Source: a virus | Taxonomy: Duplodnaviria > Caudoviricetes | DNA length: 53,645 nucleotides | IMG/VR virus record: IMGVR_UViG_3300048033_000859 | Span: 1 to 53,645 of that record | Strand: one strand, 5' to 3' | In this document: one piece after another, positions 1-53,645 of the stretch | Layout: each line of letters begins with the position of its first letter | How positions within the stretch are numbered: the stretch's first letter is position 1 | Made by a program: the position numbers and the translations under genes | The notes under the pieces: generated by a model | Databases searched by the model: none | The model's input: only the letters and a program-made list of their open reading frames with translations | What the model was told of the DNA's origin: nothing

Positions 1-181
1 GCTCACCACTGTCATTCTTGCAACGGAACGGGCATGATCCGTAAAGTTAAAAAGGACGGGACCCCTTGGAAAAACCTTACAACCTGCCTCAACTGCGAGG
101 ACAGAGCGGGGGTTATCTACGAAAATACAAAGACCGTCTGTGGCTTTAAGCTTGTACCGATGGGTAGGCAAAATTCATCGT
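1..181. repeat. Terminal direct repeat, copy 1 (matches 53465-53645; circular assembly overlap)
   Basis: 179/181 identical to the window end; mismatches at positions 33 and 54. Confidence 0.95.
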
Positions 182-4048: not shown

Positions 4049-4335
4049 GCGAAAGAAAAGACGAGATTTTAGTGCCAGAAAATAGTATAATGGTAGGTCT
4101 AGCCCTAGTGGAAGACGATCAATTAGCTATCGTTAGGCTAGAACACCTTTCGGATAATATTACCCCAGAACAAGAGGACATTATTCAATCTGTCACTCTG
4201 GGCGTTCTATTTTTGATGCGCCACGGCTTGGGAGCATTAAAGAAGATTGGTGAGCAAGACATGGCACTCGACGCTTTACTGCGAGACTCCGATTTTGATG
4301 AAACCGTAGTCCCGTTTGATACCACTAAGCACTGA
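4045..4335 (+). CDS. Hypothetical protein
   Basis: 96 aa, coupled to the upstream gene by an ATGA overlap. Confidence 0.7.
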   Translation: MSERKDEILVPENSIMVGLALVEDDQLAIVRLEHLSDNITPEQEDIIQSVTLGVLFLMRHGLGALKKIGEQDMALDALLRDSDFDETVVPFDTTKH

Positions 4336-5133: not shown

Positions 5134-6879
5134 ATGAGCAAAGAAGACTACGGACCCACTCTACCTATTTCCCAAAAAATTCACTCCGACAAATACCGTG
5201 GAAAAGGTGAGTGTTTCTATGATGCAATGAGCCGTGTATCAGGCGCACTTAAAGACGATGAATATCACTACAATAACTTTAAAAACATTTTATTAGAGCA
5301 GCGTTTTCTACCTGCAGGGCGCGTTCAATCAGCCATGGGGGCTCCCCGCACCGTCACACCATACAACTGTTTCGTGAGTGACACTATCCAAGATGGCCTA
5401 GAAGAAATCATGGAGTCGGCTAAACGGGCGGCACAGACCATGAAGCTTGGTGGAGGTATCGGGTATGACTTTAGTACTCTTCGCCCCTCTGGCAGTCATA
5501 TTACATCACTAGATAGCTCTTCCAGCGGTCCCATCTCGTTTATGGGAATTTTTGATGCAACATGCAAAACAATTGCTTCGGCAGGAAACCGCAGAGGAGC
5601 CCAAATGGGCGTATTGCGCGTCGATCACCCCGATATCGAAGAGTTTGTTCGTGCAAAGACCAATAGTGACCACCTCACACAGTTTAATATCTCTGTGGGC
5701 GTTACTGATGAATTCATGGAAGCGGTAAAAGCAGATACGGACTTTGAACTGCGCTTTGAAGGAAAGGTTTATAAGGTAGTAAACGCCCGTGCGCTGTGGG
5801 ATGAAATTATGAGATGCACATGGGATTGGGCAGAGCCTGGGATTCTGTTTATTGACCGCATCAACTCAAAAAATAACCTGCATTACTGTGAAACTATCGC
5901 GGCTACAAATCCATGTGGGGAGCAGCCCTTGCCGCCTAATGGTGCATGCTTGCTAGGGTCATTTAACCTTGTGAAGTATATGGTGGAGCATGACGGTAAG
6001 TATGTGTTCAATATGAACCAACTCCGCAATGATATTCCTCATGTTGTACGGGCTATGGATAATGTGGTGGATCGTGCAACGTACCCACTCCCTGAACAAC
6101 AGGAAGAAGCGGTAAGTAAGCGCCGTATGGGCCTTGGTATCACGGGTTTGGCTAATGCCATCGAAGGATTAGGGTTTCCCTACGGAACCGATGACTTTGT
6201 GCGGGTAATGAAAGAGATCATGGGTACTATCAGGGATGGTGCCTATCGTGCATCTATAGCACTAGCGGTTGAAAAGGGTCCTTTTCCTCTATTCCAAAAA
6301 GAGTACCTTGATAGTGGTTTCGCCAAGACGCTTCCCGATGATATCCGTTCCGATATTGCAAAGTACGGAATTCGCAATAGCCATTTATTAAGTGTTGCGC
6401 CAACTGGAACTATTTCTCTTTCTGCAGACAATGTTTCCTCTGGCATTGAACCTGTATTCAGTGTAAAATATGATCGTACAATCCAAGAAATAGACGGTCC
6501 TCATGTTTACGAAGTTGTAGACTATGGATACTCAAAATTTGGAGTGGAACCAAACACTGCAGACGAACTTTCTGTATTTGATCATGTTAAAGTTCTCAAT
6601 GTAGCTTCCTACTATGTAGACTCCGCTTGCTCCAAAACATGCAATGTTGGCGACAATGTTTCGTGGGAGGATTTCAAGAAAATATACTTGGACGCTTATG
6701 AAGGCGGGGCCTCTGGGGCAACTACCTTTAGGGCGTCAGGAAAGCGTTATGGAATTTTAAACGCAACTAATACTGAAAAGGTCACTGAAGACCCTGTAGT
6801 AGAGCAAAACCAAGACTTCGTTGAGGAGGGTGGTGCATGCTATTTCGACACATCCACGGGTCTCCGTAAGTGTGAGTAG
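5134..6879 (+). CDS. nrdJ: Ribonucleotide reductase, probably class II (B12-dependent)
   Basis: NCFV, GGGIG, NPCGEQPL, APTGTIS motifs; C-terminal Cys pair; no beta-subunit gene seen in the genome. Confidence 0.88.
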   Translation: MSKEDYGPTLPISQKIHSDKYRGKGECFYDAMSRVSGALKDDEYHYNNFKNILLEQRFLPAGRVQSAMGAPRTVTPYNCFVSDTIQDGLEEIMESAKRAAQTMKLGGGIGYDFSTLRPSGSHITSLDSSSSGPISFMGIFDATCKTIASAGNRRGAQMGVLRVDHPDIEEFVRAKTNSDHLTQFNISVGVTDEFMEAVKADTDFELRFEGKVYKVVNARALWDEIMRCTWDWAEPGILFIDRINSKNNLHYCETIAATNPCGEQPLPPNGACLLGSFNLVKYMVEHDGKYVFNMNQLRNDIPHVVRAMDNVVDRATYPLPEQQEEAVSKRRMGLGITGLANAIEGLGFPYGTDDFVRVMKEIMGTIRDGAYRASIALAVEKGPFPLFQKEYLDSGFAKTLPDDIRSDIAKYGIRNSHLLSVAPTGTISLSADNVSSGIEPVFSVKYDRTIQEIDGPHVYEVVDYGYSKFGVEPNTADELSVFDHVKVLNVASYYVDSACSKTCNVGDNVSWEDFKKIYLDAYEGGASGATTFRASGKRYGILNATNTEKVTEDPVVEQNQDFVEEGGACYFDTSTGLRKCE

Positions 6880-7057
6880 CATCGTCCAAGTAGCCTCACC
6901 CTGCATAAAACAATGCAAACTAGATAGCAGCGGAATGTGTGCAGGGTGCAGTCGAACAGCCAATGAAATTCGTGAGTGGAGGACTATGTCTGCTCACGAA
7001 CAAACTACGCTTCTAAATGAGCTAAAATATAGAGCCCAGAATGAGCAAAAATGCTAG
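6872..7057 (+). CDS. DUF1289 family Cys-rich small protein
   Basis: SPCIKQC...C.GC.RT..EI..W signature; GTG start at 6872. Confidence 0.85.
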   Translation: MSSIVQVASPCIKQCKLDSSGMCAGCSRTANEIREWRTMSAHEQTTLLNELKYRAQNEQKC

Positions 7058-7766
7058 ACGATTTACCCGTAGAAAAAAACAAACTCAGGACGATCTGGGA
7101 AACAAGACTACCAGAAAGCCCCACATAGAACTAAAGGCCCTCACAGCAACTCAGTCTGTCTACATAGCGGCTCTCAATAGAGACCCCGTTATCCTAGTTA
7201 CAGGGTGCGCTGGCACAGGCAAGACCTTCATGGCGGCAACGCAAGCTGCCAAGATGTATAGTAACAGAAGTGTTACTACTATTGTTATAACAAGGCCCAA
7301 TATTGCGGCAGGGGGTAAGGGCATAGGCTTCTTTCCTGGCTCCTTAGAGCAGAAAATGAGTCCTTGGGTAGCGCCTATCGTAGACGTATTAAAGAAGCAT
7401 CTTGGCAGTGCTGCAGTCGAAATAATGATCAAGCATGGCGATCTAAAGATAGAGCCGTTTGAGACACTACGGGGCAAGTCATTTGAGAATGCATTCATTA
7501 TTCTAGATGAAGCCCAAAACTGCACCTACGAAGAGCTAAAGCTTTTCTTGACTAGGTTGGGCGAGAATACCAAAGCGGTTATTAATGGGGATGTAGCACA
7601 AACAGACTTGGCTGAGAGAAGCGGTCTCAGAAAGGTCATTGGGATAGTTAAGGACCAACTACTGCCATTCCCCGTAATAGAATTTACAGAGAGGGATATT
7701 GTCCGTAGTGATGTTTGCGCGACATGGATACGAGCCTTCTCAAAATATGAAAAGCGAAGGAAATAG
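7041..7766 (+). CDS. phoH: PhoH-like ATPase
   Basis: GCAGTGKT, ITRP, GFFPG, LRG, ILDEAQN, LTRLG, GDVAQ, DIVRS motifs. Confidence 0.95.
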   Translation: MSKNARRFTRRKKQTQDDLGNKTTRKPHIELKALTATQSVYIAALNRDPVILVTGCAGTGKTFMAATQAAKMYSNRSVTTIVITRPNIAAGGKGIGFFPGSLEQKMSPWVAPIVDVLKKHLGSAAVEIMIKHGDLKIEPFETLRGKSFENAFIILDEAQNCTYEELKLFLTRLGENTKAVINGDVAQTDLAERSGLRKVIGIVKDQLLPFPVIEFTERDIVRSDVCATWIRAFSKYEKRRK

Positions 7767-7768
7767 CT

Positions 7769-7951
7769 ATGATACCGATAGAGTGGATGTTCGCCATAAT
7801 TCTTTGGCTTCTAGGGTCTATATTCATCATACTGGTTTTTGAACCTGCAGAGGGTACTCCCCCAGCAAACCTAGTGCTCTTAGCTCTGTTTTGGCCCTTC
7901 TATACTGTCTTTATCATATTACATGAAATATTCACACCTTACCGAGATTAG
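7769..7951 (+). CDS. Small membrane protein
   Basis: 60 aa with two hydrophobic segments (LFWP motif). Confidence 0.7.
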   Translation: MIPIEWMFAIILWLLGSIFIILVFEPAEGTPPANLVLLALFWPFYTVFIILHEIFTPYRD

Positions 7952-7954
7952 GGG

Positions 7955-7984
7955 TTGACCTATAATCCCTAAGTGATCTACCAT
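7955..7984 (+). promoter_or_regulatory. Putative sigma70 promoter for sRNA candidate A
   Basis: TTGACC-N18-TACCAT, overlapping a TTAGGG...CCCTAA dyad. Confidence 0.5.
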
Positions 7985-7989
7985 TAAAG

Positions 7990-8078
7990 AGCATAGTAAG
8001 TTGCTACTCGTTGGTCTGAATGGCAACTCCTTTCGTTAGATACACAACAAGAAAGCGCCCCCTTTTGGGGGCGTTTTT
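7990..8078 (+). ncRNA. Candidate small RNA A (hairpin, anti-SD tract, terminator)
   Basis: No ORF between promoter and terminator; stem AGTTGCTA/TGGCAACT followed by CTCCTTTCG. Confidence 0.45.
8051..8078 (+). terminator. Intrinsic terminator
   Basis: GCGCCCCC-TTTT-GGGGGCGT followed by a T tract. Confidence 0.8.
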
Positions 8079-8100
8079 ACATAAAAGGCCCATAGTCTTA

Positions 8101-8129
8101 TTGACTACAGGCCCTTAAAATTATATAAT
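8101..8129 (+). promoter_or_regulatory. Near-consensus sigma70 promoter for sRNA candidate B
   Basis: TTGACT-N17-TATAAT with no downstream + strand ORF; dyad GGCC-N2-TAGTC-N5-GACTA-N2-GGCC (8087-8113) overlaps the -35 box. Confidence 0.8.
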
Positions 8130-8135
8130 TTGTGT

Positions 8136-8211
8136 AACCAGTGGAGAGTGGTATCCCCACGGGTTAGTGAAAGCGGCCCCTCTTAGAGAAATCTAAGGGG
8201 GGTTTAGCTTT
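8136..8211 (+). ncRNA. Candidate trans-acting antisense RNA B, complementary to early-gene leaders
   Basis: Contains GTGGTATCC-N5-GGTTAGTGAA (8148-8171), the reverse complement of the leader of five early mRNAs; ends in a GAAA-capped hairpin (8177-8202). Confidence 0.6.
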
Positions 8212-8213
8212 AT

Positions 8214-11200
8214 CTACTGCAGGAATGTTTCTGAGAAGGCATCCTTAGTTTGATCCCAGATGTTTCCCATAAAGGTTTTACCGTCACGGGTGTACTGTCT
8301 GACATTGGCTTCAGCTTCTGCCGAGGCAGCAATAATCTCAAAATTCATCTGACGGGCCTCTTCTGCATCCTCTGGGCCAAACATACCTGCGTAGACTAGG
8401 GCGTCTATAGTTGAGGCTACAACCCGCGAAGTGATTGATGGGTTAAATTCTTCCTTGAGAATTATCTCAGTCAACCTCTTAGCAGTTTGCGGGTTAGACA
8501 AGATATCATCCGACATTTGATCCCACGCTGACGCATTAAATTTTTTGTTTATTACTGCAGTACCTGCCCTACGAAGCCTTGCACCAGTACGGTTTAAGTT
8601 ACCGTACACAAAGGTGATAATGTTACCTAGTTGCTCTAGTTGCTGCGCCTTAGTACGGGCTGTGACACTATTTCCACGGTCAGGACGGGCTACTCTGAAC
8701 CCCTGCTCCTGGGCCGCTTTGTTGTACAGATTGATAATCAAATCTGCCGCATCTGGGCGATCCGCAAAGACAATCTTTAGACCATCAATCCACTTACCAG
8801 TTTCCGTACCAAGCTCTTTGGAGATTTGCGCTTGGCTTAGTCCACCAGACTTAGTTGCACCATCTGAAGTGGTCTTTAGAGCAGCACCAAATCTTTTCAT
8901 GTAGGCAGCTTGAAGACCCTCTAAAAGTAAGGGTCTGCCGTTTTCGGCCTCTTCCATGAATTGTTTCGTAAGCGTGTTTAAACGCCCTACGTTTCTTCGC
9001 CCACCTGTCACATAATTGTTAATCAGACCATCAAAAGCATCCATCCCAACTTTCACTGGAATACCTTGGCTAGTAAAGAAATCCTGAATCTCGCTTTCGC
9101 GCAATCTTTCAAGGGTCTTAGTATTGTTGGTCTGAGCCCGATCTAGAGCTTTTAACAAGTCATCTTTGTTGTATGCACCGTTGTATATACTGGTTCCCAA
9201 TTGATCTAGTTCATCTGCCAGTTGGGGGTTAGACTTGCGTAGTACTGTTTCGTACACAGCAAGGTTGTTTAAGGCGTCCATTATCTCTGCCTGTTTAGGG
9301 GCCGCACCCCCTGCCCGTAAGCGGGACATAATTGGCCCAAGGCTCTCAAACAAGACAAAGTCTACTAGTTCGTCAGTACCACCCGCCTCTGGCCTCTGTA
9401 GTAAGGTGACGATAGCTGTGGCATTAGACCTAGTCCTACGACTAAGGTTGTCCGTAATTGTTGAACGGGCTACATCCTGAAATGATGTGTTACGGGACAC
9501 GCCTGTTAGACCGCCACTTGTAGGGTCAATCTTCTCATCATACAACTTAGCGACCTGCCCTAGAGCAGTATCCTGATCTTTAAAATATGGGATGAAGTTG
9601 GCTTGGTCCCAATCAATGGCTCTCGACACGTTCTCTAGTAGTTCTACGTCCCCAGTACTATCTAGCAGTTCACCATCGATGTACTTGATCAGATCGTTTA
9701 TTGAGCGTCCCGCTGACTTTTGTGCATTACCACCTGAGTCAAACAGATCAGATTTTGTACGGGCTAGGTCTGCGCGTAGGTTCTGAAACAGAGAGCCGTA
9801 ATCCACGATGTCAGCATCAGCTAGGGCTCCCTGAAATTCTAAGAATATCTCATCATCAGACATCTCAACAGATTGCTTGCCAGCGGGTACAGGATCAAAA
9901 TTATCTAGGCCACTTACAGTGTCCGTTGAAACTGTCCTGTTTCTACTGGATACGGACTCTAGTAGTTTCTTGAGCCGTGGAGCATAGCCTAACGTGGTTG
10001 CTGCCTCAGATAAATCTGCAGGGTCCATCTCTTTTAGGAATTCAAACAGTCCACGATCATCTAGAGCCCCGCCGTTTACTTTTCCGTACTGCGCGACACG
10101 CTGGCCCTTTAGGTTCCTGTAGGCTGCACTCACGCGGGTAACTACCGTGTCTATGGCGTTGTCAGCATTTCTGTTTAAGTTTATTCCTGTAAGCTGGCTT
10201 AGTCGATTTAAGGTAGCGGATATAGTTCCCCCCGTGTTAATCTCCTCAGTCAGCCGATCATCTAGAGTGTCCAGTGCAGACTCTAATTCTTGTATTTCAG
10301 AACTTGTTCTGCCCACAGTTGCAGCATCTTCCGATCCATCTTGGACCATTTTGGCAGAACGATTGACCGCTGCCATACCACCTAGGTTAGTGTCTGCCGT
10401 TTTCACTGCGTCTGAGAAAGTTTCCTGTGCCGCTTCTGCTTTAATTGCAGTGTTGGTCATTGCAGGGTTATTGATTGCGCCCTGTTGAATTCCCTGCGCT
10501 CTATTCATAACCTGATTGGGGTTCTGCAAGCGATAGGCTATCTGCCCCGCCTGTCCATAGTCACCCGATTCAACCGCCATTAAGAATGCATTCATCGTAC
10601 TCCTGTTAGTTTCTGCGCCTTGGAGTACACTGTCATTTATCGTATTAATTTCTACTGCGTACTTATCCAGAGAGGCTGCAAAAGCTTCCATGAATTGTTT
10701 TCTTTGTTCGGGGGAATTCGCACCCTCTGCGCGGATTAGCTTTTGTAATATGTCGCCCATCGCAGCTTTTTCTTGAGCAGACTTTTTGAATGACCCAAAT
10801 AGTCCACCAATGGTAAATGCGTTAAGGGCTCTGACGCCAGAAATGGCACCCTGAATCGTTGAACTAAACAGTTTACTAATAGCGGCACCTTCGATAATCA
10901 TATTTCTACGATTTTCTAGGCGTTGTTTCCATTCTGCATCTGTGGCGTTGGGGTCTAGCCCCTCAAGAATGGGCATGTAATCTGAAGCTTTAACGAAGGC
11001 ATCTTCACCCAAGAAAAGACCACTAGATTCTCCATCAATAGGCGCTGTAAAGGCTATCGCCTCACCAGTAGCGCCCATAAGACCTCCAACAGCTTTACGG
11101 AGTTTTCCTACTTCCTTTGTAGATTTAAATAGCCCACCGAGCCATTTAGCACCCTTCACAATAGGTCCACCTACACCAATTACCCCAGAGGCTTCTCCTC

Positions 11201-12170
11201 CAAGACCACGCAAGCCCTGACCCTCTTCGCTATATTCAGAGGTGTTGTCTCTTATAAACTGTCCCCAGCTTTCTTCGTCATTGATACCATCATCGCTAAT
11301 TTTATCACGAATGAAATCACCGATATCTGCTACAAATTCTACCGTACTTTTAAAGCCATCTTCTACACCCTCAACCGCCCAACTATCCATGATGTATGGC
11401 GTATTCGACATCTTATCCCACATGATTTTAGGGACACGGTATTGGTCACCTTTTGCATCTGTATATATATGTCTACCGTCCCACCGTTGCTCAGTCCTAG
11501 GGTGATTAATGTACTCGTTCAGGGTGTTAACTACGATATCATAGTTTTGGTCTGGGCTTGTGATGTTATCCATCAGGGAGTCAAACATCCCAGATGAAGG
11601 CGCAGGTAAGTCCTTGGCGTTAGCTGTGGCAGTAGCGACAGAAACACTAGGTTCAGGCTCTGCAGGGGGAATATTCACTGGGGCCTGTGAAGCTACCTCG
11701 CTGTCTGGTTCAGAAACAAGAGCAGTGGGGCTATCTACGGTTGGTACTGTAGGCTGTACTGGAGCGACAGTATTCTCTTTAGCTTGTGGTTCAGGCCCTA
11801 GAACCTCCTCTGTAGGTGCAGAGAACCCGCTCTTAGTATCCGCTAGGGATGGATTAGACATGGCCTCTGGGGACATAGTAGATGGCTGTGCATCAGGTTG
11901 TGTAGCTACGGGGTAAGGTTCTGGGGTTGAATCCGCTCCACTGTAAGGGTTCTCATTATTGAAGAAATAAGAAGTCCTATTATTCTCAAAAAAGCTATCC
12001 TTTGCTTGGGGCGCAGGATTTGGAGCGTTTGCGTTGGGGTCTTCCGCTGCAGGGTTTGTCTTAGCCATAATACTAAGAAAACGGCGCATCTCTTCAGGAG
12101 AGGCTGAGTCACCCTCAATGCCAAATGTCTGAGGTGTACCATCGGGTGCTTGTAGTGTAATATTTCCCAT
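8214..12170 (-). CDS. Large internal virion (ejection) protein
   Basis: 1318 aa, last gene of the structural operon, Pro/Ala-rich N-terminal linker, no Cys. Positional inference. Confidence 0.6.
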   Translation of the reverse strand: MGNITLQAPDGTPQTFGIEGDSASPEEMRRFLSIMAKTNPAAEDPNANAPNPAPQAKDSFFENNRTSYFFNNENPYSGADSTPEPYPVATQPDAQPSTMSPEAMSNPSLADTKSGFSAPTEEVLGPEPQAKENTVAPVQPTVPTVDSPTALVSEPDSEVASQAPVNIPPAEPEPSVSVATATANAKDLPAPSSGMFDSLMDNITSPDQNYDIVVNTLNEYINHPRTEQRWDGRHIYTDAKGDQYRVPKIMWDKMSNTPYIMDSWAVEGVEDGFKSTVEFVADIGDFIRDKISDDGINDEESWGQFIRDNTSEYSEEGQGLRGLGGEASGVIGVGGPIVKGAKWLGGLFKSTKEVGKLRKAVGGLMGATGEAIAFTAPIDGESSGLFLGEDAFVKASDYMPILEGLDPNATDAEWKQRLENRRNMIIEGAAISKLFSSTIQGAISGVRALNAFTIGGLFGSFKKSAQEKAAMGDILQKLIRAEGANSPEQRKQFMEAFAASLDKYAVEINTINDSVLQGAETNRSTMNAFLMAVESGDYGQAGQIAYRLQNPNQVMNRAQGIQQGAINNPAMTNTAIKAEAAQETFSDAVKTADTNLGGMAAVNRSAKMVQDGSEDAATVGRTSSEIQELESALDTLDDRLTEEINTGGTISATLNRLSQLTGINLNRNADNAIDTVVTRVSAAYRNLKGQRVAQYGKVNGGALDDRGLFEFLKEMDPADLSEAATTLGYAPRLKKLLESVSSRNRTVSTDTVSGLDNFDPVPAGKQSVEMSDDEIFLEFQGALADADIVDYGSLFQNLRADLARTKSDLFDSGGNAQKSAGRSINDLIKYIDGELLDSTGDVELLENVSRAIDWDQANFIPYFKDQDTALGQVAKLYDEKIDPTSGGLTGVSRNTSFQDVARSTITDNLSRRTRSNATAIVTLLQRPEAGGTDELVDFVLFESLGPIMSRLRAGGAAPKQAEIMDALNNLAVYETVLRKSNPQLADELDQLGTSIYNGAYNKDDLLKALDRAQTNNTKTLERLRESEIQDFFTSQGIPVKVGMDAFDGLINNYVTGGRRNVGRLNTLTKQFMEEAENGRPLLLEGLQAAYMKRFGAALKTTSDGATKSGGLSQAQISKELGTETGKWIDGLKIVFADRPDAADLIINLYNKAAQEQGFRVARPDRGNSVTARTKAQQLEQLGNIITFVYGNLNRTGARLRRAGTAVINKKFNASAWDQMSDDILSNPQTAKRLTEIILKEEFNPSITSRVVASTIDALVYAGMFGPEDAEEARQMNFEIIAASAEAEANVRQYTRDGKTFMGNIWDQTKDAFSETFLQ

Positions 12171-41092: not shown

Positions 41093-41271
41093 TAGTATTC
41101 CATCTTTTTCTTGGGCTTTTTAGCGTATCCACCTTTTGAGTAACCAGCCTTGGGTTTCTTTAGGTTAGTGATATCGATACCATTACCCTCAACCGCCATA
41201 TACCCACCGCCAGCGGCCTGTACGGAGGCACCGCAATTGGACTCTTTAACTTTTGCAACTTTATAACGCAT
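41092..41271 (-). CDS. Small basic protein, 59 aa (not in ORF track)
   Basis: MRYKVAKVKESNCGASVQAAGGGY...GYSKGGYAKKPKKKMEY; TAATG overlap with the next gene. Confidence 0.7.
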   Translation of the reverse strand: MRYKVAKVKESNCGASVQAAGGGYMAVEGNGIDITNLKKPKAGYSKGGYAKKPKKKMEY

Positions 41272-42416: not shown

Positions 42417-42476
42417 ATCACCACTGCTCTTATAGGTGACCCTACCCAATCAGCCGTTATTATTATTATTGGGAGT

Positions 42477-42505
42477 ACCCTACAGCACCATATCTGGTAT
42501 GTCAA
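42477..42505 (-). promoter_or_regulatory. Sigma70-type promoter at the head of the packaging/structural arm
   Basis: TTGACA-N17-TAGGGT. Confidence 0.55.
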
Positions 42506-42509
42506 CTCT

Positions 42510-43050
42510 TAGGGGTACTATTACAACCCCTATTACGTTTACAATCTCCACGGGACCCCTATTCTAGCCATACTACGGAGTTTACATACTAATTAATTCT
42601 GGTCCGTATCCCCCCATGCTAACCCTAGGCGGTTTACTGTCCAATTTTCCTTATTTTGTGCATAGACTGTATACGATATCGTACCCCACCCCCCATGGCG
42701 CTTGGCCCCCCCGATTTCTTTCGAGCATTGCTAACCTTCTGATTTTATTAGGGTAATTATCTTAGGAAAGATACGAGAGAGGGAAAATCTTCAGGGAATT
42801 TATAGAGAAAAGAAATGAAAGAGAATTTCTGCAGGTTTATCAAAGAATTAACCCTGTGAAACTCATAACTTTTTGGTAACAGAATAAGAAAAAAGGGCAG
42901 AGATTTTGCGTGTGACAGAAAATTTAAGTCGTGTGGTGCCGCATGGCGATGCACTCTATTAAACCTGAGATATCTCTAGGACTAATCTACAGGGATAACT
43001 AGGGGGGGTTTAACTCTTTAGGCCACTACCCTAGCCAAACTACAGGGGCT
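42510..43050. other. Largest non-coding interval; candidate physical terminus or packaging-initiation region
   Basis: No convincing ORF; palindrome TACGATATCGTA (42672-42683), C runs, IHF-like site (42732-42744), purine-skewed tract. Confidence 0.4.
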
Positions 43051-43102
43051 AGCTTGTGTGGCCCTCTCTCTGGTCTATCGGCGCGGGATATAACAGGGCA
43101 AT

Positions 43103-43130
43103 AAAAAAGACCCCCAAGAGAGGGGGCCTA
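43103..43130 (-). terminator. Repeated early-region terminator, copy 1
   Basis: TAGGCCCCC-loop-GGGGGTCTTTTTT on the minus strand. Confidence 0.85.
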
Positions 43131-43151
43131 GATATTGTTAAGGGGGAGAGT

Positions 43152-43352
43152 TTAGAAGGGACCGTATGCAAGCCACAGGGCTTTATCAGGGTAATGGTCA
43201 CAGTCTCCAATTGCGTATTCGTAATAGATGTTAGGGTGTCTCTCTGAGATTGCTTTTCTAGCTGCATCATTACAATTAAACACCCTGTTATCTACTACGG
43301 TCCAAGGGTAGCTTGTATCGAATGACGCTCTAAATTTTAAGAAATAAGACAT
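43152..43352 (-). CDS. Early hypothetical protein
   Basis: 66 aa, TAATG coupling, GAGG RBS. Confidence 0.7.
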   Translation of the reverse strand: MSYFLKFRASFDTSYPWTVVDNRVFNCNDAARKAISERHPNIYYEYAIGDCDHYPDKALWLAYGPF

Positions 43353-43636
43353 TAGGCCACCTCTGCAGTCGAGAGCTTTTTAATTAGCTCTATGGTCTCT
43401 CTGGCCCGTCCTAATCTGTAACGGGAAGTTGATATCTCACTTGTTAGCCTATCCCTTTCCTTTTTTAATTCGTGGACGGTGTTTAGCTCTTGTTTGAGGC
43501 ATGCAATAAGAATGTGAATATCTTTGCATGTTTCTACCATCCCATCCTTGTGCAGATCAGCGGCAATCAAATGCATCAATTCTATTTGAGCCCAAGGGTC
43601 TAGTTCTTGGGCGGTGTTTTGATTTTCGGTATTCAT
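43352..43636 (-). CDS. Early hypothetical coiled-coil protein
   Basis: 94 aa, preceded by the conserved leader motif. Confidence 0.75.
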   Translation of the reverse strand: MNTENQNTAQELDPWAQIELMHLIAADLHKDGMVETCKDIHILIACLKQELNTVHELKKERDRLTSEISTSRYRLGRARETIELIKKLSTAEVA

Positions 43637-43639
43637 TTT

Positions 43640-43663
43640 GTGGTATCCTTTTAAGTTAGTGAA
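43640..43663 (-). promoter_or_regulatory. Conserved early leader motif, copy 1
   Basis: mRNA sense TTCACTAACTTAAAAGGATACCAC, 3 nt before ATG; preceded by a GC hairpin with CTACGG loop. Confidence 0.85.
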
Positions 43664-44227: not shown

Positions 44228-44407
44228 TTATACACCCCCCGCCAAAAAATCACCGAGCTTGCACGATAACCATGGGCCAAAGAATAGCCCTAGGACAAGC
44301 CCAGAGGCCCCGAGAGCAGAGTTGATAGACCAGAAGGCCCAACAGATTAGAAAGGGGCTCGATACTGTTAGCAGAGCAGAAAATATGGAAATGATTAAAA
44401 GTTTCAT
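44228..44407 (-). CDS. Early small membrane protein, 59 aa (not in ORF track)
   Basis: MKLLIISIFSALLTVSSPFLICWAFW...LVLGLFFGPWL; follows leader motif copy 2. Confidence 0.75.
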   Translation of the reverse strand: MKLLIISIFSALLTVSSPFLICWAFWSINSALGASGLVLGLFFGPWLSCKLGDFLAGGV

Positions 44408-44410
44408 AGT

Positions 44411-44435
44411 GTGGTATCCTTTTAAGGTTAGTGAA
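44411..44435 (-). promoter_or_regulatory. Conserved early leader motif, copy 2
   Basis: mRNA sense TTCACTAACCTTAAAAGGATACCAC; preceded by a GC hairpin with GCAA loop. Confidence 0.85.
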
Positions 44436-44460: not shown

Positions 44461-44679
44461 TTAAAATCCGTTAGAGGTCTTTTCTTCTAGTTCCAGTGCA
44501 TCAGATAACCAATCTATCACACGCTCCCACTGTCTAGGGAGGTCAGTTAAAGAGATATCAAAACCAGCGGCAAGAATTTCACCCTCTAAGAATATCATCT
44601 TATCTGCGCCAATTTGAGCGTACTGGTCTGCTAGTGATTTAGTTGCTAGTTTTTCAATTTCTGATTTAGTAATTTTCAT
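44461..44679 (-). CDS. Early hypothetical protein
   Basis: 72 aa starting MKITKSEIE after leader motif copy 3. Confidence 0.75.
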   Translation of the reverse strand: MKITKSEIEKLATKSLADQYAQIGADKMIFLEGEILAAGFDISLTDLPRQWERVIDWLSDALELEEKTSNGF

Positions 44680-44682
44680 AGT

Positions 44683-44743
44683 GTGGTATCCTTTCGGGGT
44701 TATAGTGTAGCCCCAAGCTAATAGGTTACTTGTAAATTTACAA
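44683..44743 (-). promoter_or_regulatory. Early promoter plus partial leader motif, copy 3
   Basis: TTGTAA-N17-TAGCTT (44715-44743); TAACCCCGAAAGGATACCAC (44683-44702). Confidence 0.65.
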
Positions 44744-44760
44744 GAGAAAATATTTAGCAC

Positions 44761-44787
44761 AAAAAAAGACCCCCAAAAGGGGGCCTA
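44761..44787 (-). terminator. Repeated early-region terminator, copy 2
   Basis: TAGGCCCCC-TTTT-GGGGGTCTTTTTTT. Confidence 0.85.
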
Positions 44788-44807
44788 ATATTTTAAATCT
44801 ACGGGGA

Positions 44808-45138: not shown

Positions 45139-45246
45139 TTAGTACCCCATTCCATAACCGATAAACAAGAAAATCCATCCCGCTGCAAAAAGGGAGAGCG
45201 CGCCAAGCGCATCCCCCAGTATCTCCACAATTTTGCGCCAATCCAT
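45139..45246 (-). CDS. Early small membrane peptide, 35 aa (not in ORF track)
   Basis: MDWRKIVEILGDALGALSLFAAGWIFLFIGYGMGY; TAATG overlap upstream; ends 1 nt before the next ATG. Confidence 0.7.
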   Translation of the reverse strand: MDWRKIVEILGDALGALSLFAAGWIFLFIGYGMGY

Positions 45247-46223
45247 TACGCTGCAATCCCTGTTAGGGAAGCCCAAGCGGGGCTTGCTAGCCAATCGCTA
45301 ACTTGATTTTGGCGGCGGTCCAGAGTTTGGGCCACATTGTCTTTCTGCTCACCTCTGGCATGCACGGGAAATAGCTCGCTGTCATGACTTGAAAAGTGGG
45401 TGAGACAGCTATGCAAGCCCCAAACTGTGAACCCTCTGCTCTGGGCCTCTATATCCAGTTGCTCCATAAATTTTGCAGTGAGGCGGCTAGCAATTCCCAT
45501 GCCCTCCAGAGTTTCTTGGGCTTGGGCTGGGGTTATCTTGGCTTGAGCCCATGCATTCCACACTTCGATTTTGCTTTCATATTTTTTCACCTGCTCTTTA
45601 ATGAAAGGAATGAAATACTCTGGGGTGTAACCTGAAGTATGGCGGCGCGATGATTTACCCCCAAGGATATCTAGGACCATGCCATTGTCACAAGCTAAGT
45701 CTGTCACAAGTGAACGGATAATCACAGGGGACTTGCCGCCGAAAGAGTTAGTGACCCCAAAGCCTAGATTTAAGAGGGTGTTTTCTCCCCCGTTCCACAA
45801 CTTGGAATAGCCTGTATTCTTTACAAGCTGACGGATTTCCTTGCCGCTATCGGCAAAGCGAACGGAAAAGCTTGTGAAAGCTCCCCCGTGGGATTGTTTT
45901 TCGTCCAGCTTTATTTCTGCCAAATATTCTTTGGGAAGGGCGCTTTCGCATGCCTCTTGCAATACATCCCGCAAGTCTGAATTTTGTGCGATTGCATAGC
46001 CAGCCCCACAATCCCCTAGCCATTCTTGGGTATCATCCCGAAAGATAGGACGTTTTTGCCATGGCTTAATGAGCGTGGGGGTATTTTCTGGAGTGGTCAA
46101 CATTGCATACTGTCCAAACTTAGCTTGCCAGTTTAAAGCATCCAACTGGGGGAAGCTCTGGGCCTCTGGGGCGGTAGTTTCTGGAGTAGTTGCAAAAGCA
46201 TTCGGGAAAGTAACGATATTCAT
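45246..46223 (-). CDS. DUF932/DUF945 family protein
   Basis: R.D....LG.....Y...QN, NSF.G, L.C.NGMV...RH, T.WGL...LT...SH. Confidence 0.82.
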   Translation of the reverse strand: MNIVTFPNAFATTPETTAPEAQSFPQLDALNWQAKFGQYAMLTTPENTPTLIKPWQKRPIFRDDTQEWLGDCGAGYAIAQNSDLRDVLQEACESALPKEYLAEIKLDEKQSHGGAFTSFSVRFADSGKEIRQLVKNTGYSKLWNGGENTLLNLGFGVTNSFGGKSPVIIRSLVTDLACDNGMVLDILGGKSSRRHTSGYTPEYFIPFIKEQVKKYESKIEVWNAWAQAKITPAQAQETLEGMGIASRLTAKFMEQLDIEAQSRGFTVWGLHSCLTHFSSHDSELFPVHARGEQKDNVAQTLDRRQNQVSDWLASPAWASLTGIAA

Positions 46224-46226
46224 AAT

Positions 46227-46308
46227 TGGTATCCTTTTGAGTTAGTGAAAAGAGCTAGACCACCTAGCTAGTGGTTATGATGTTACCCCTTGTGAAATTA
46301 TAACGCAA
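46227..46308 (-). promoter_or_regulatory. Early promoter plus leader motif, copy 4
   Basis: TTGCGT-N17-TAACAT (46280-46308); TTTCACTAACTCAAAAGGATACCA (46227-46250). Confidence 0.75.
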
Positions 46309-46309
46309 G

Positions 46310-46339
46310 AAAAAAAAGACCCCCAACAAAGGGGGCCTA
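46310..46339 (-). terminator. Repeated early-region terminator, copy 3
   Basis: TAGGCCCCC-loop-GGGGGTCTTTTTTT. Confidence 0.85.
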
Positions 46340-46420
46340 ATATTTATGTAGTATATTTGAGAACTAGCCACATCACACCGAGCCAAAATGTGAAGTAACC
46401 ACAGAAAAGATAAATTATTT

Positions 46421-47227
46421 TCATCGGGGAGCACTCGCCACGGCGTCAGCTTTTTTGACGCTAATCCCATGGGCGGGAAAACCCACAATAGTCTCTCTCT
46501 TATATATGCTGCATAAACCACAGTCCTTGCAATTTGTGTCCATATAAGTTGCGGGGCAAATTGTCAGCTTGTGGCCCATCGGGGTTACAGTTGGTTTTCT
46601 CTTTTTATAATCTGCCAAGCTTTCCCCGTCCTGAATTCCCATTTTTTCAGGCAATACAGTTGCAAGAGGAATGCTAGGAAACTTACTTTTTGCGGGGCTG
46701 GCCTCCCAATTATAATATACAATCTCTGCCAATTCATCGGCATGGTCTAACCCGTTACATGAGGCGTTAATAGTTAGGCCATTCAAGTTTGCATCCATTA
46801 CAGCGTTAAAATTGTGTGTGTCTTCTATACTATAATGCGTGAACCCAAAGCCCCGCTTTCCTTTGTTAGCCTCTACTAATTCAGAGAGGGCCACAGGGTC
46901 TATTTGTTCATCATTACATTCTGCAATATTTGGCGGTAAATCCCCAACTTGATTTAATCGCCACAACTGGCCCTCTTTAATTGATAAGACAGCCCCTAGA
47001 AATGCAAGCCAAGTCCCCCCAGCTTTCCCTGCAGAAACTTTATCCCAAAATCTACGGATGTGGCCCCCGTCCCCGTAGCATCCATTTTTTTTAAATAGGC
47101 AACTATTGGGACAAGTCCCATTGTGGGAAGTTGACACAGGTATAGGCCCTGTCTTTCTGTTTCTACTTTTCATAGTCAAAGCGAAAAAACCTGTGACATT
47201 AGCGACAAAATTAATTTCATGTTTCAT
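46421..47227 (-). CDS. Cys-rich early protein (Gp88-like / radical-SAM-like Fe-S candidate)
   Basis: N.KTG, CPNSC......CY, R.N..GD, CPA....CKDCGLC...GF.AHG. Confidence 0.65.
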   Translation of the reverse strand: MKHEINFVANVTGFFALTMKSRNRKTGPIPVSTSHNGTCPNSCLFKKNGCYGDGGHIRRFWDKVSAGKAGGTWLAFLGAVLSIKEGQLWRLNQVGDLPPNIAECNDEQIDPVALSELVEANKGKRGFGFTHYSIEDTHNFNAVMDANLNGLTINASCNGLDHADELAEIVYYNWEASPAKSKFPSIPLATVLPEKMGIQDGESLADYKKRKPTVTPMGHKLTICPATYMDTNCKDCGLCSIYKRETIVGFPAHGISVKKADAVASAPR

Positions 47228-47230
47228 TGT

Positions 47231-47311
47231 GTGGTATCCTTTTAGGTTAGTGAATAAGAGCGTCTGGCCCCTATAACCCCTAGCATAGGGTCAATTAACT
47301 ACCCCTTGCAA
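47231..47311 (-). promoter_or_regulatory. Leftward early promoter plus leader motif, copy 5
   Basis: TTGCAA-N18-TATGCT (47282-47311); TTCACTAACCTAAAAGGATACCAC (47231-47254); dyad ACCCCTAGCATAGGGT over the -10 box. Confidence 0.72.
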
Positions 47312-47443
47312 GATACTTTTTTTCTGAAATTTTTTTAGATTTTTGCTTGCGCCAACAAGAGTCAGTATATAAGGTCCCTTCCATTGACCCCGCCAAAGCA
47401 AGTCTAAGTTATATATTACTCTTGACGCGCCAGTAGCTAAAAA

Positions 47444-47665: not shown

Positions 47666-47702
47666 AGGTTACGTTATATCTTAACGCGCCAGTAATTAGA
47701 AT

Positions 47703-47901: not shown

Positions 47902-47933
47902 CTCTGATACTGATAACCTTGGAGGATATAAGA

Positions 47934-49046
47934 ATGGGAAATATGTTAGCACCGTACATTCAAGTGTACAAAAAGAAGGGGAAATCTGAGTACAGGTTTC
48001 AACCAAAGAAAGACATGCGGATAGCCTTGGGAGTGCATGGATTTACAATGCATGATGAACAAGAGGCTCTAGCGTATAGCGCAACCGTTCAACAACTGTA
48101 TTACGACTACAGTCGCAAGAAAAAGAACGCTATTGCGATCAACGAAAGGACTTTGTCTGGCCTTGTTCATTGGTTTTATCAGACCAGTGAGTTCAAAGAG
48201 CGTAAGCCTAACACGCAGAAGAGCTATAAGGAGCAGCTAGGTCTGATATGTAAGGTCACCCTGCCGCGCAGTAAGACCCCTCTAGGTGCTTTGATGGTAT
48301 CCACGATGGATCGGGAGAGGGCTGACGCTTTAAAACAGTTCTTGACAGAGCACTACTCATATCACCGAGCTTATATGTGCATAAAGACAATTCGTCGGTT
48401 GTTCTACGTTGGCAGCGTTTATGGGAAGGGCATCAAGTTTAACCCGTTTGCAAAGATGGACCTGAAAACACCCGCTAGTCGCAAGGAACGCTGGGAGCAG
48501 GGCGACATCTATCGTTTTATAGATAAGTCTGACGAACTAGGGTTTCACGGTTTAGGTACACTAGCTCTAGCTTGTTATGATTTAGCTCAGAGGCCTGGAG
48601 ATATACGCCAACTGACTTGGGAAAATGTTGTAGGCAATCGATTGATCTTCACCCAAGAGAAGACCGAGCAGCCTATGAATGTTGTTATGAGCGACGAACT
48701 AGTAAAACGCTTATCAACAATCAAACGTGTCAACAGTACCAACAGGATTGTGTACCATGTAGACCCACGAAATAAAAAAATCTGTGAGTATGATAACAGA
48801 AATTACAATTGCCACCGCAAGTTAGTTTTAGAGGCACTGAACCTCCCAGAGAAATTACAACTACGGGACCTTCGTAGAACTGCAGCGTCCGAGATGGCTA
48901 ACGCTTCTTGCACCGATGATGAAATCCGAGAGGTCACTGGACACAAGACCCGTGACGTTCTGTCTATCTACCTAGTTCAAGATGGAACTGCAGGGGACAA
49001 CGCCCAAGATAAACGGAGGCAGAAGTATGGACAAAAAGGTGCCTAG
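47934..49046 (+). CDS. int: Tyrosine integrase
   Basis: Catalytic pattern QRPGD (R), QEKT (K), RDLRRT, TGH and Y; GGAGG RBS before ATG 47934. Confidence 0.93.
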   Translation: MGNMLAPYIQVYKKKGKSEYRFQPKKDMRIALGVHGFTMHDEQEALAYSATVQQLYYDYSRKKKNAIAINERTLSGLVHWFYQTSEFKERKPNTQKSYKEQLGLICKVTLPRSKTPLGALMVSTMDRERADALKQFLTEHYSYHRAYMCIKTIRRLFYVGSVYGKGIKFNPFAKMDLKTPASRKERWEQGDIYRFIDKSDELGFHGLGTLALACYDLAQRPGDIRQLTWENVVGNRLIFTQEKTEQPMNVVMSDELVKRLSTIKRVNSTNRIVYHVDPRNKKICEYDNRNYNCHRKLVLEALNLPEKLQLRDLRRTAASEMANASCTDDEIREVTGHKTRDVLSIYLVQDGTAGDNAQDKRRQKYGQKGA

Positions 49047-51276: not shown

Positions 51277-52497
51277 ATGGATACCACAATATTAAAGAAG
51301 ATTCTGAACAACGAATTCTACGAGTCTAACAAGGCCAGACTCAATCCTAAACTTTTCGAGCATGAAGCGCGTGACGTTTTTCTTACAATCAAACAGGCGC
51401 AGGAGTCCTATGAAAAGGACTTAACAATCTCAGAAGTAGTATCTCTGTATGATGCAAACAATCCTACGAGCACTAGGTCTCAGAAGGATGAAGTAATTCA
51501 GTTTCTATCTGATGTAGCCGCCGAGTCTGAAATTTCAGATGATATCGCCAATGACATTATTGTTAAGTTAGACCAGCGTTATGTTGCGCAGGTCATAGCA
51601 GACAAAGCTGCCTCCATTTCACTTGGAGAGAGTGATGGATGGGAAGAGCTAGTTAATCTTGTAGACGAATATCGTGATGGGTTTGGTAAAGACGAACTAA
51701 TAGATTTTGAAACGGCAGACGTTTATCAGATAATTGAAACTCTTTCCGATAAACAACGCTTCAAGTTTAACCTGCCCACACTTAACAAGAAAGTGTATGG
51801 CATCGGGCGTCAGGAATTCGGTGCAGTATTTGCCAATACAAATGTTGGTAAGTCTGCATTTATGATCAGCCTATGTTTTGGGCCTGATGGATTTGTAGAT
51901 CAAGGTTTACGGGTTCTGTTCGTATGTAACGAAGAGCAAGCCATCCGCACCAGACAACGTGCAATGTCAGCCTTTTCAGGCATGTCCAAGGATGAAATGA
52001 TACTGGACCCTGAGAGTGCAGCTATACACTGGAACAAAGTTAATCATTTGGCTTTCTTCAAAGATTGCCAAGACCTGATGCTACCTGAGATTGAGAGTAT
52101 TATAAGTAAGGTTGGTTTCGATGTAGTCGTTTTTGACCAGCTCGACAAAGTTCACATTGCTGGAAAATTTAATGCTTCCCATGAGAAATTTGGGGAGCTG
52201 TACAGGCAAACCCGTGAGGTTGCCAAGAGAACCAACACAGCGGTCTTTGGTGTTACCCAAGCTAGTGCAGACGCCAGAGACAGTACTGTAGTAAGCCACT
52301 TCGATATGTCTGGTAGTAAGGTTCACAAGGCGGCTGAGTTAGATTTAGCAATCGGAATAGGCGCGAGGGAACAGAAAGATGCCCAAGCCGAGCCTGATTT
52401 CACACGCTGGATAAATATAAGCAAAAACAAACTTAACGGATGGCACGGGACAGTTGTGTGCATGCTCGACCAGAAGGCGAACCGCTATGTTGTATAA
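51277..52497 (+). CDS. SF4 (DnaB/T7 gp4-like) replicative helicase
   Basis: ANTNVGKS Walker A, NEE, FDQLD, TQAS, GS...KAAE.D, KNK..G.HG. Confidence 0.92.
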   Translation: MDTTILKKILNNEFYESNKARLNPKLFEHEARDVFLTIKQAQESYEKDLTISEVVSLYDANNPTSTRSQKDEVIQFLSDVAAESEISDDIANDIIVKLDQRYVAQVIADKAASISLGESDGWEELVNLVDEYRDGFGKDELIDFETADVYQIIETLSDKQRFKFNLPTLNKKVYGIGRQEFGAVFANTNVGKSAFMISLCFGPDGFVDQGLRVLFVCNEEQAIRTRQRAMSAFSGMSKDEMILDPESAAIHWNKVNHLAFFKDCQDLMLPEIESIISKVGFDVVVFDQLDKVHIAGKFNASHEKFGELYRQTREVAKRTNTAVFGVTQASADARDSTVVSHFDMSGSKVHKAAELDLAIGIGAREQKDAQAEPDFTRWINISKNKLNGWHGTVVCMLDQKANRYVV

Positions 52498-53645
52498 TGA
52501 TGATGCCCTAATTTATGACTTTGAAGTTGGAACTAGCTGGGTTGCGGAGGGGGTCAGAGATAATACCCCACATAACCCAGACAACATGCTCGTAACCGCA
52601 CAATACTGTCACTTAACTAACCTTCAAGACAAAGAGCAGTGCCTGGAGGAGCTACGCACCAAGACCAAGACAATTGTAGTATATCATAACGAAATGGATA
52701 AGTCCGTTAAGCCTGATATTAGCCCTTTCGTTGAGCTTTATAATAAAGTTGGTGTGGTAGTTGCACACAATAACAAGTTTGATGAGATGTGGAGCCGTGC
52801 GCTAGGTATACCTTTACCTAATAACAGATTCTGCACCATGATATGTCAGTACTTGTTAAATAAAGGCCAGAGAAAGCCTTTGAGCCTCGCAGAGGTAGTC
52901 AAAGTGTACGGCCTCACAGAGAAGAAAACCGACCTTACCCACGATGAATTTAAAAACGGTAAAGAGTACTATGAAATAGCACTTGATAACGTGATTGAGT
53001 ATGGTGAAGGCGACATTCAAAGTGCTGGTGAGTTGTTCTTGGCACAGCTAGAGGAGCTAGAGAAGGACTCTAATAAATCCCTAAAGGCTGTGGTGCTAGG
53101 TACTAATGATATGACTGATGTAGTCATAGAAATGGAAATGAACGGCATCAAGATTGATCGTGAAGCTCTAGACGCTGTAGAGACTGAATTTCAACAGGAG
53201 TCAGATCAACTAGAACGCGACATTCAAAGAATGACTAGAGAGGTTATGGGGGATAGGCCCTATAAAATGTCTTCTGGGCAGGACTGCTCCGTAATTCTCT
53301 ACTCTAGAGACTTCATAAGCAAACCTCACAAGGCATCGTGGAAAAAGATAATGAACCTTGGTGTGGATGAATACACTAAGAAGCCCCGATATAGACCCAC
53401 CATGAAGGCCTCTCAATTCTCCCGCGAAGTTCAGGAACACTTTAGAGTTGTGAACAGAGAGGTAGCTCACCACTGTCATTCTTGCAACGGAACGGGAATG
53501 ATCCGTAAAGTTAAAAAAGACGGGACCCCTTGGAAAAACCTTACAACCTGCCTCAACTGCGAGGACAGAGCGGGGGTTATCTACGAAAATACAAAGACCG
53601 TCTGTGGCTTTAAGCTTGTACCGATGGGTAGGCAAAATTCATCGT
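52487..53645 (+). CDS. polA: Family-A DNA polymerase, N-terminal 3'-5' exonuclease part (not in ORF track; runs off the window end and continues at base 182)
   Basis: ATG 52487 MLYNDDALIYDFE (ExoI), AHNNKFD (ExoII), YGEGD (ExoIII), MEMNGIKID; no stop seen before the window end. Confidence 0.93.
   Translation, partial: MLYNDDALIYDFEVGTSWVAEGVRDNTPHNPDNMLVTAQYCHLTNLQDKEQCLEELRTKTKTIVVYHNEMDKSVKPDISPFVELYNKVGVVVAHNNKFDEMWSRALGIPLPNNRFCTMICQYLLNKGQRKPLSLAEVVKVYGLTEKKTDLTHDEFKNGKEYYEIALDNVIEYGEGDIQSAGELFLAQLEELEKDSNKSLKAVVLGTNDMTDVVIEMEMNGIKIDREALDAVETEFQQESDQLERDIQRMTREVMGDRPYKMSSGQDCSVILYSRDFISKPHKASWKKIMNLGVDEYTKKPRYRPTMKASQFSREVQEHFRVVNREVAHHCHSCNGTGMIRKVKKDGTPWKNLTTCLNCEDRAGVIYENTKTVCGFKLVPMGRQNSS
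53465..53645. repeat. Terminal direct repeat, copy 2 (matches 1-181)
   Basis: See copy 1. Confidence 0.95.

Follow-up and report, generated by a model that had tools for sequence, protein, structure and literature searches.

Genome Organization and the Convergent Junction

The locus studied here lies in a complete phage record of 53,645 bp, which was analyzed over its whole length and is referred to below as the window. The phage is a marine podophage of the HMO-2011 type with a G+C content of 45.4%. Its portal and terminase DNA is 64-68% identical to that of the Roseobacter phages CRP-212, CRP-3, and CRP-235 and of the Puniceispirillum phage HMO-2011, and its gene order is the same as that of CRP-212. 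The two ends of the window (1-181 and 53465-53645) form a direct repeat of 181 nt with 99% identity, which points to a circular assembly or a terminal repeat, although the record is listed as linear; the polymerase ORF runs across the record ends. A tRNA scan of the phage genome returned none.

The genes are arranged in a plus-strand block, which opens with the integrase, and a minus-strand block, which runs from the small genes of unknown function to the structural genes (Table 1). Since the plus block ends at 7951 and the minus block ends at 8214, the unit described below sits in a convergent junction of 262 bp (7952-8213). A Pfam scan of 40 phage proteins detected no HTH, repressor, or RNA-binding regulator family, and many small ORFs had no family at all. 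At the Pfam level, this agrees with an earlier interpretation made from the sequence alone (hereafter the sequence-only reading), according to which the phage has no recognizable repressor.

Several other parts of the genome also carry candidate regulatory or structural elements. On the minus strand, about 640 bp (42470-43105) contain no ORF and include a G-rich stretch, cgggggggccaagcgccatggggggtgg; this region is partly conserved (68% identity) at positions ~1200-1870 of the closest relative, L091, and its possible roles are those of an origin, a packaging site, or a structured RNA. In the divergent region, a 23-nt repeat on the plus strand (47420-47442 and 47679-47701; TCTTGACGCGCCAGTAGCTAAAA / TCTTAACGCGCCAGTAATTAGAA) flanks an ORF of 73 aa between the integrase and the first leader gene, and its copies may be promoters or operators. 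In addition, the motif AAGGGGT(A/T)A occurs near candidate promoters at 47300-47260, 46290-46270, and 21400-21340 on the minus strand, and at 70-90 in L091.

Table 1. Positions of genes, leader copies, and predicted signals in the window. Folding energies are given in kcal/mol; hairpin assignments are predictions.
Feature	Position	Strand	Remarks
Integrase	47919-49046	+	Start of the plus block
ThyX (thymidylate synthase), primase, helicase, polymerase, endonuclease I, MazG		+	Plus block, after the integrase; polymerase across the record ends
RNR	5134-6879	+	
PhoH	7041-7766	+	
Last ORF of the plus block	7769-7951	+	60 aa
Hairpin D	8054-8080	both	GC-rich bidirectional terminator closing the plus (replication) block; -22.2 on plus, -16.0 on minus; found by the terminator scan on both strands
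Hairpin C	8087-8114 (8079-8114 with UUUUAUGU)	-	-19.5 on minus, -13.7 on plus
Sigma-70-type promoter, TTGACT-N17-TATAAT	8101-8129	+	11/12; predicted start near 8136
AT palindrome, 14 nt, AAATTATATAATTT	~8117-8130		Contains the -10 hexamer; not folded
Predicted small RNA, ~70-78 nt	8136-8213	+	Hairpin B, single-stranded GUGAA, hairpin A
Hairpin B	8137-8164		Formed by the replaced spacer and flanking CCAC/GGTTA; -11.6 on plus, -14.1 on minus
Anti-leader block 1, GTGGTATCC	8148-8156	+	Complementary to GGAUACCAC between target SD and AUG
Anti-leader block 2, GGTTAGTGAA	8162-8171	+	Complementary to UUCACUAACY
Hairpin A	8172-8209 (tail UUUAGCUUUAUCU to ~8211)	+	GAAA loop; -22.7 on plus, -15.2 on minus
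1318-aa gene	8214-12170	-	Last of the minus block; 3'UTR exactly complementary to the proposed RNA
Minus block	47227 downward	-	Small function-unknown genes, terminase, portal, structural genes, 980-aa then 1318-aa protein
Leader copy	47231-47254	-	Spacer TAAAA, then ACA and ATG 47227; DUF7227 gene 46421-47227, 268 aa
Leader copy	46226-46249	-	Spacer CAAAA; block 1 ends in A, not C; 2 nt to ATG 46223; hairpin directly upstream; gene 45246-46223, 325 aa, weak DUF932 match
Partial leader	44683-44691	-	SD and block 1 only, hairpin replaces block 2; ATG 44679; ORF 44461-44679, 72 aa
Leader copy	44411-44435	-	6-nt spacer TTAAAA; ATG 44407; hairpin directly upstream; ORF 44228-44407, 59 aa
Leader copy	43640-43663	-	Spacer TAAAA; ATG 43636; hairpin directly upstream; gene 43352-43636, 94 aa
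Three near-identical strong intrinsic terminators	43097-43134, 44756-44793, 46308-46345	-	AGGCCCCC..GGGGGTCT and T run

A Two-Block Leader Shared by Five Small Genes

Five small minus-strand genes located between 43.6 and 47.2 kb are preceded by a leader of 24 nt that reads TTCACTAACY-N5/6-GGATACCAC and is followed, after 2-3 nt, by ATG. Read as the plus-strand pattern GTGGTATCC-N4-7-GGTTAGTGAA, the two blocks have three exact matches in the window (8148, 44411, and 47231), and the same pattern in 100 dinucleotide shuffles gave a mean of 0.00 matches and a largest value of 0. A looser minus-strand form, TTCACTAAC-N6-GGATACCA, matched four times on the minus strand and never on the plus strand, and its reversed control had no match. 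The recurrence of two blocks before five distant minus-strand genes, as claimed in the sequence-only reading, is thus beyond chance, with five copies at gene starts and an orphan copy in the junction. The same reading had counted two copies preceded by hairpins; in fact, hairpins directly precede three of the five leader copies, in addition to the orphan. An additional look-alike at 41135-41172 lies inside an ORF of 59 aa and was dropped as a chance match.

The products of the five leader genes are a DUF7227 protein, a protein with a weak DUF932 match, and proteins without a family; that these genes are early is an assumption. The three near-identical terminators split this small-gene region into separate units, and downstream of two of them come a CTTGYR-type promoter candidate and then a leader. 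Candidates of the form CTTGYR-N17/18-TAnnnT were picked out by eye upstream of three leader copies and in L091, and none of them reached 9/12 in the promoter scan. After the end overlap, the leaders and the three terminators rank highest among the repeat families found in the genome, and CRP-212 has no comparable repeat family. The leaders share the features of PeSL-type elements, namely a repeated intergenic stem-loop with an SD and a start codon before ORFans, here in five copies, three of which stand directly behind a hairpin. They look like portable PeSL-like regulatory cassettes.

Evidence from the closest relative bears on this portability. L091, whose terminase is 86% identical in protein sequence and whose DNA is ~73% identical, is a fragment of 26 kb that covers positions 42711 to 26435 of the window plus 1.6 kb upstream, the junction being outside it; searches with junction-flanking and early proteins gave no contig of this lineage that extends to the junction. 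Its record contains one copy of the leader, cttaacttaacAAAAGGATACCACgctATG, which has the same SD and block 1 as the present leaders and departs from them in block 2 at 3-4 bases. When the L091 leader gene and two of its neighbors were compared with the window by tblastn (E up to 1), no match was found; the leader thus stands before a gene that has no homologue here, as would be expected of a portable module placed on different ORFans. The retention of block 1 and the SD in L091 suggests that selection acts on the leader itself.

The Orphan Copy and Its Surroundings

In the junction, an orphan copy of the leader (8171 to 8148 on the minus strand) has both blocks exact, a spacer that reads CGTGG, and no start codon after it. 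All 19 block bases of the leaders are kept in this copy and none of the five spacer bases, which means that the Shine-Dalgarno sequence is gone. By hand count, contiguous placements represent 20 of the 42,504 ways in which five changes can be distributed over 24 positions. The new spacer also creates hairpin B, and a contiguous change of five bases that brings a new hairpin is not what random decay gives.

The orphan is preceded on the plus strand by a promoter-like sequence, TTGACT-N17-TATAAT, whose predicted start is ~12 nt before block 1. The sequence-only reading had placed it among the closest-to-consensus promoters, and with 11 of 12 positions it proves to be the sole sigma-70 match of at least 11/12 on either strand of the genome. 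Shuffled sequences lead one to expect 1.15 matches of at least 11/12 genome-wide; within the 262-bp junction, a match this good occurred in 0.64% of 5000 shuffles (0.0064). No ORF of at least 30 aa was found in 8119-8209 on either strand, in keeping with the observation that this promoter drives no ORF. Its -35 hexamer lies inside hairpin C, which is better suited as a terminator of minus-strand transcription, and its -10 hexamer lies in an AT palindrome; minus-strand signals could therefore account for part of the promoter match.

A second promoter-like site, TTGACC-N18-TACCAT (9/12), occurs within 7955-8084 on the plus strand. It is followed by a hairpin, a single-stranded CUCCUUUC that resembles an anti-SD, and terminator D, and this structured stretch has a z-score of -4.3. 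The stretch may encode another small RNA, or it may be no more than the PhoH operon's 3'UTR; for the plus-strand stretch 7990-8084 with its anti-SD CUCCUUUC, duplex ranking did not single out the leader genes.

Four hairpins structure the junction (Table 1). Hairpin C, together with UUUUAUGU, is a predicted intrinsic terminator of the minus (structural) operon, and two G-U pairs of its minus form become A-C mismatches on the plus strand. Hairpin B shows a similar asymmetry, with a G-U pair in the minus form and an A-C mismatch in the plus form, and the minus form is favored by 2.5 kcal/mol in B and by 5.8 kcal/mol in C. Hairpin A, the GAAA-capped closing hairpin of the sequence-only reading, is present; it is 7.5 kcal/mol more stable on the plus strand, where its U-rich side also lies, and is proposed as the predicted terminator of a small RNA, although the strict terminator scan did not list it. 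The idea that promoter and hairpin form one transcription unit is thus borne out in part: the promoter and hairpin A both fit the plus strand, and TTGACT is at the same time embedded in a better minus-strand terminator. As hairpin A lies downstream of the strong plus-strand terminator D, a plus-strand terminator at this place is most readily understood if transcription begins between the two.

Folding of the plus-strand RNA 8136-8218 gave a minimum free energy of -39 kcal/mol with a z-score of -5.0, and none of 200 shuffles folded as well; the minus-strand RNA from 8213 to 8045 reached -72 kcal/mol with a z-score of -7.8. A search of the whole window against Rfam at the gathering score yielded no hit. 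When 7700-8400 was submitted to cmscan with E up to 1, four weak hits were obtained, none of them C4. Among the Rfam families, the trpB motif (RF04312) matched 8161 to 8076 on the minus strand with 37 bits (E 0.0007), without reaching its gathering score of 59, and this match simply reflects hairpin B, the AU spacer, and terminator C, a generic likeness of hairpin plus terminator.

Predicted Pairing with the Leaders

On the plus strand, the orphan is complementary to the leaders of the five minus-strand genes, as had been proposed: blocks of 9 and 10 nt flank the SD at four full targets, and block 1 alone matches the fifth (ATG 44679). The variation between C and U at the last leader base of block 2 keeps a G-C or a G-U pair. 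In the folding prediction, GUGGUA, which represents 6 of the 9 bases of block 1 and is the complement of leader UACCAC, is unpaired with a probability of 1.0 in the loop of hairpin B. The sequence-only reading had the fold expose a seed in a loop, and the computed structure does so. Block 2 is partly held in stems, and opening the RNA costs 3.1 kcal/mol for block 1 and 8.2 kcal/mol for block 2 (3.1-12.3 kcal/mol overall). The target leaders are largely unstructured, with opening costs of 0.5-4.7 kcal/mol, and the helices formed by the two blocks are worth -13.8 and -12.9 kcal/mol. Set against the 3.1 kcal/mol of block 1, the target cost is 0.5-2.9 kcal/mol. According to these models, pairing between the RNA and the leaders is thermodynamically easy, and the computed combination of an accessible seed and favorable pairing with the targets is the one sought in a trans-acting small RNA. 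The sequences, the promoter match, the computed folds, and the complementarity are, as such, direct observations.

When 61 start regions were ranked by duplex energy, the five leader genes came out on top (-30 to -37 kcal/mol), a ranking that is circular and not independent, because the motif was found by similarity. The next positions were held by the start at 4316 (sixth, -27.9 kcal/mol) and the helicase start at 51277 (seventh, -27.5 kcal/mol).

The short sequence GATACCAC is also present at the start codons of these two plus-strand genes, the helicase gene, which starts at ~51277 (51277-51288, ATGGATACCACA), and the DUF3310 gene, which starts at ~4316 (4316-4327, TTGATACCACTA). These starts could be weaker extra targets, or chance matches.

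Distribution of the Junction in Relatives and Metagenomes

The same junction is short in distant relatives, with 70 bp in CRP-212, 45 bp in L161, and 62 bp in L219, and the 262-bp unit is therefore an addition in this lineage. The L161 junction contains one bidirectional terminator, and the last minus-strand gene of that genome is not homologous to the 1318-aa gene. Among GenBank phages, no match to the 262-bp junction was found, and the 1318-aa protein had one match, at 22% identity.

Other searches for relatives gave a similarly sparse picture. No close relatives were found for the C-terminus of the 1318-aa protein or for the DUF7227 protein, and the 980-aa protein had matches only at 24-44% identity. 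A search with the hydroxylase retrieved L091 and three distant loci, and among the best 80 of at least 598 loci obtained with RNR, nucleotide identity was ~65-70% over RNR only. Against bacterial genomes, the terminase had one match (66%).

As for the motif itself, a search of L091-L151 that allowed two mismatches per block gave seven weak matches, none of them at a gene start. Exact matches elsewhere (five loci in IMG/VR and at least 80 in JGI metagenomes) consisted of one match each, none in a sequence similar by blastn, and were read as chance. In IMG/VR, AAAAGGATACCACNNNATGA occurs at 42 loci, one of which is L091; the others are mostly in-frame coding sequence of a small protein in other phages, and none has a leader with block 2.

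The stretch 7000-10000 is present in 24 listed runs from 23 studies. In two marine DNA runs, contigs are 100% identical to the window over 7933-8437 and 7994-8289; as these two metagenome runs belong to different studies, this exact genotype is widespread. In two RNA libraries, contigs cover 7000-7057, 7636-7786, 8238-8511, and 8702-8866, leaving 7787-8237 uncovered, and such contigs show neither strand, nor ends, nor absence.

Interpretation of the Junction Unit

The single most likely explanation, which we put forward tentatively and at somewhat less than an even chance, is that the junction unit is a plus-strand gene for an antisense small RNA. Host RNA polymerase would start near 8136 from TTGACT-N17-TATAAT, and transcription would stop at the GAAA-capped hairpin with its U-rich tail, giving an RNA of ~70-78 nt. 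The GUGGUA loop would first meet the unstructured GGAUACCAC between the SD and AUG of five mRNAs (47227, 46223, 44679, 44407, and 43636), and pairing would then spread to block 2, where GGUUAGUGAA would pair with UUCACUAACY; the two helices would bracket the SD, and ribosomes would be kept off. Because the RNA is a perfect complement of the structural-operon 3'UTR, late transcription through the junction should both interfere with the small-RNA promoter and soak up the RNA. That this RNA is made, that it pairs in vivo, and when and in which direction it would act are what we infer from the sequence features. The leader is carried by five genes only, and the proposals of the sequence-only reading that the RNA may be a master regulator of the whole early set and may serve lysogeny or immunity are unsupported. 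A more elaborate version, a "leader-cassette regulon" in which a portable 5' leader on unrelated accessory genes, shut-off by one junction RNA of ~75 nt, and a 3'UTR sponge would together make an all-RNA timer, appears decidedly improbable.

Part of the evidence can also be read on the other strand, in line with the alternative already offered in the sequence-only reading, a minus-strand signal at the end of the late operon. The structural-operon 3'UTR would then carry a leader look-alike without SD or start codon, held in hairpin B between hairpins A and C, which could compete for a leader-binding protein or a host RNA, or could be an element of RNA processing or stability. The orphan resembles the working leaders in its orientation and in the hairpin that precedes it, hairpins B and C favor the minus strand, the minus stretch folds with a z-score of -7.8, and the loss of the SD with both blocks kept would suit a decoy that does not load ribosomes. 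Hairpin A, moreover, is a poor minus-strand terminator, and structural transcripts should therefore run through the copy to C. The weak trpB match of hairpin, spacer, and terminator (37 bits) lies on this strand as well; however, it stays well below the gathering score of 59. Such a minus-strand role would make the sole 11/12 promoter, suitably placed and oriented, a matter of coincidence and leaves the 7.5 kcal/mol advantage of hairpin A on the plus strand unexplained, and the Pfam scan of the 40 proteins offers no candidate for the binding factor. We consider this alternative unlikely, although not negligible. A comparable weight is given to the possibility that the orphan is a non-functional scar, left when a PeSL-like cassette (terminator, promoter, hairpin, and leader) lost its gene at the end of the structural operon, with the spacer rewritten in one event such as template switching across a nearby inverted repeat. 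A single multi-base event would explain the contiguous 5-nt change; three near-identical terminators and five near-identical leaders make up the top repeat families; the L091 leader precedes a gene without homologue here; the orphan stands behind a minus-strand hairpin, as three leader copies do; and the PeSLs of T4-type phages are recombining stem-loop, promoter, and SD cassettes before ORFans (PMC2839356). However, a scar would hardly be expected to keep 19 of 19 block bases beside the best promoter of the genome and a plus-oriented terminator, unless it were very recent or the blocks were under selection, and terminator C is unlike the three cassette terminators.

A sequence-specific protein could also recognize the two blocks, either on DNA or on RNA. 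The stoperators of mycobacteriophage L5 are sites for a DNA-binding repressor, and RegA of T4 is a translational repressor; by analogy with these, the blocks would be a stoperator-like or a RegA-like site, of which the junction would hold a further copy. All six sites are asymmetric and face the same way with respect to transcription, the blocks persist where the SD is lost, and block 1 is conserved in L091. However, the blocks show neither dyad nor direct-repeat symmetry to one another, the fixed distance of 2-3 nt to ATG points to a function at the RNA level, and Pfam recognized no HTH, repressor, or RNA-binding regulator family in the 40 proteins. A protein site is accordingly regarded as very unlikely.

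If the junction RNA is made, as the small-RNA explanation holds, it would represent a phage riboregulator that acts on several unlinked targets by recognizing a shared portable leader. This would link two subjects that are usually studied apart, mobile cassettes that shuffle ORFans and antisense control, and would mean that newly acquired genes can come under phage control without a protein regulator. The idea is easy to test, since sequence alone specifies the RNA, the leaders, and the compensatory changes. Should the orphan be a scar instead, PeSL-like cassettes would be documented outside T4-type phages.

Comparison with Known Systems

HMO-2011-type phages are a widespread marine group whose gene regulation is poorly known. 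Among the titles and abstract openings retrieved in a literature search on promoters in this group, none dealt with regulatory RNAs. On the minus strand, the likeness to the Rfam trpB motif consists of a hairpin, an AU-rich spacer, and a terminator hairpin with a U tract, and the trpB context is lacking here.

The lambda OOP RNA is short, is transcribed from a strong promoter of its own up to an intrinsic terminator, and is read against an oncoming operon. In cis, it targets the cII coding region at its 3' end. A promoter and a terminator of its own, directed against an oncoming operon, are what the predicted junction RNA has in common with OOP. In contrast, the overlap here would concern only the 3'UTR and the stop codon of the 1318-aa gene, and the blocks match distant leaders.

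The leaders themselves recall the PeSLs of T4-type phages, described by Arbiol et al. as repeated intergenic modules in a variable region, in which a stem-loop and a sigma-70-like promoter are combined with SD and start codon before ORFans (PMC2839356). In related phages, according to the same study, PeSLs are attached to non-homologous genes (PMC2839356). The present leaders differ in that they belong to a podophage of the HMO-2011 type and that their conserved core is the 5' leader, not the promoter. A copy that has lost both SD and gene, with a consensus promoter facing it from the opposite strand, has no PeSL counterpart in the abstract and PeSL section of that study (PMC2839356).

The parallel drawn in the sequence-only reading was with the C4 RNA of P1 and the CI RNA of P4. 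These are trans-acting phage RNAs of ~77 nt in which two short separated blocks pair with a region that includes a ribosome-binding site, so that synthesis of the proteins encoded downstream is repressed (see also PMC8546580). In its logic, the parallel stands: like P1/P7 C4 and P4 CI, the junction unit has two blocks that cover a ribosome-binding region. Family membership does not, as the plus strand has no covariance-model match to C4 or to any other Rfam family, and the unit is not a member of the C4 family. C4 is cut from the same operon transcript as its targets. In contrast, the junction unit comes with a promoter of its own and is separated by ~35 kb from its targets, which are on the opposite strand; whereas C4 is directed at one operon, the two-block logic would here be applied to five separate targets.
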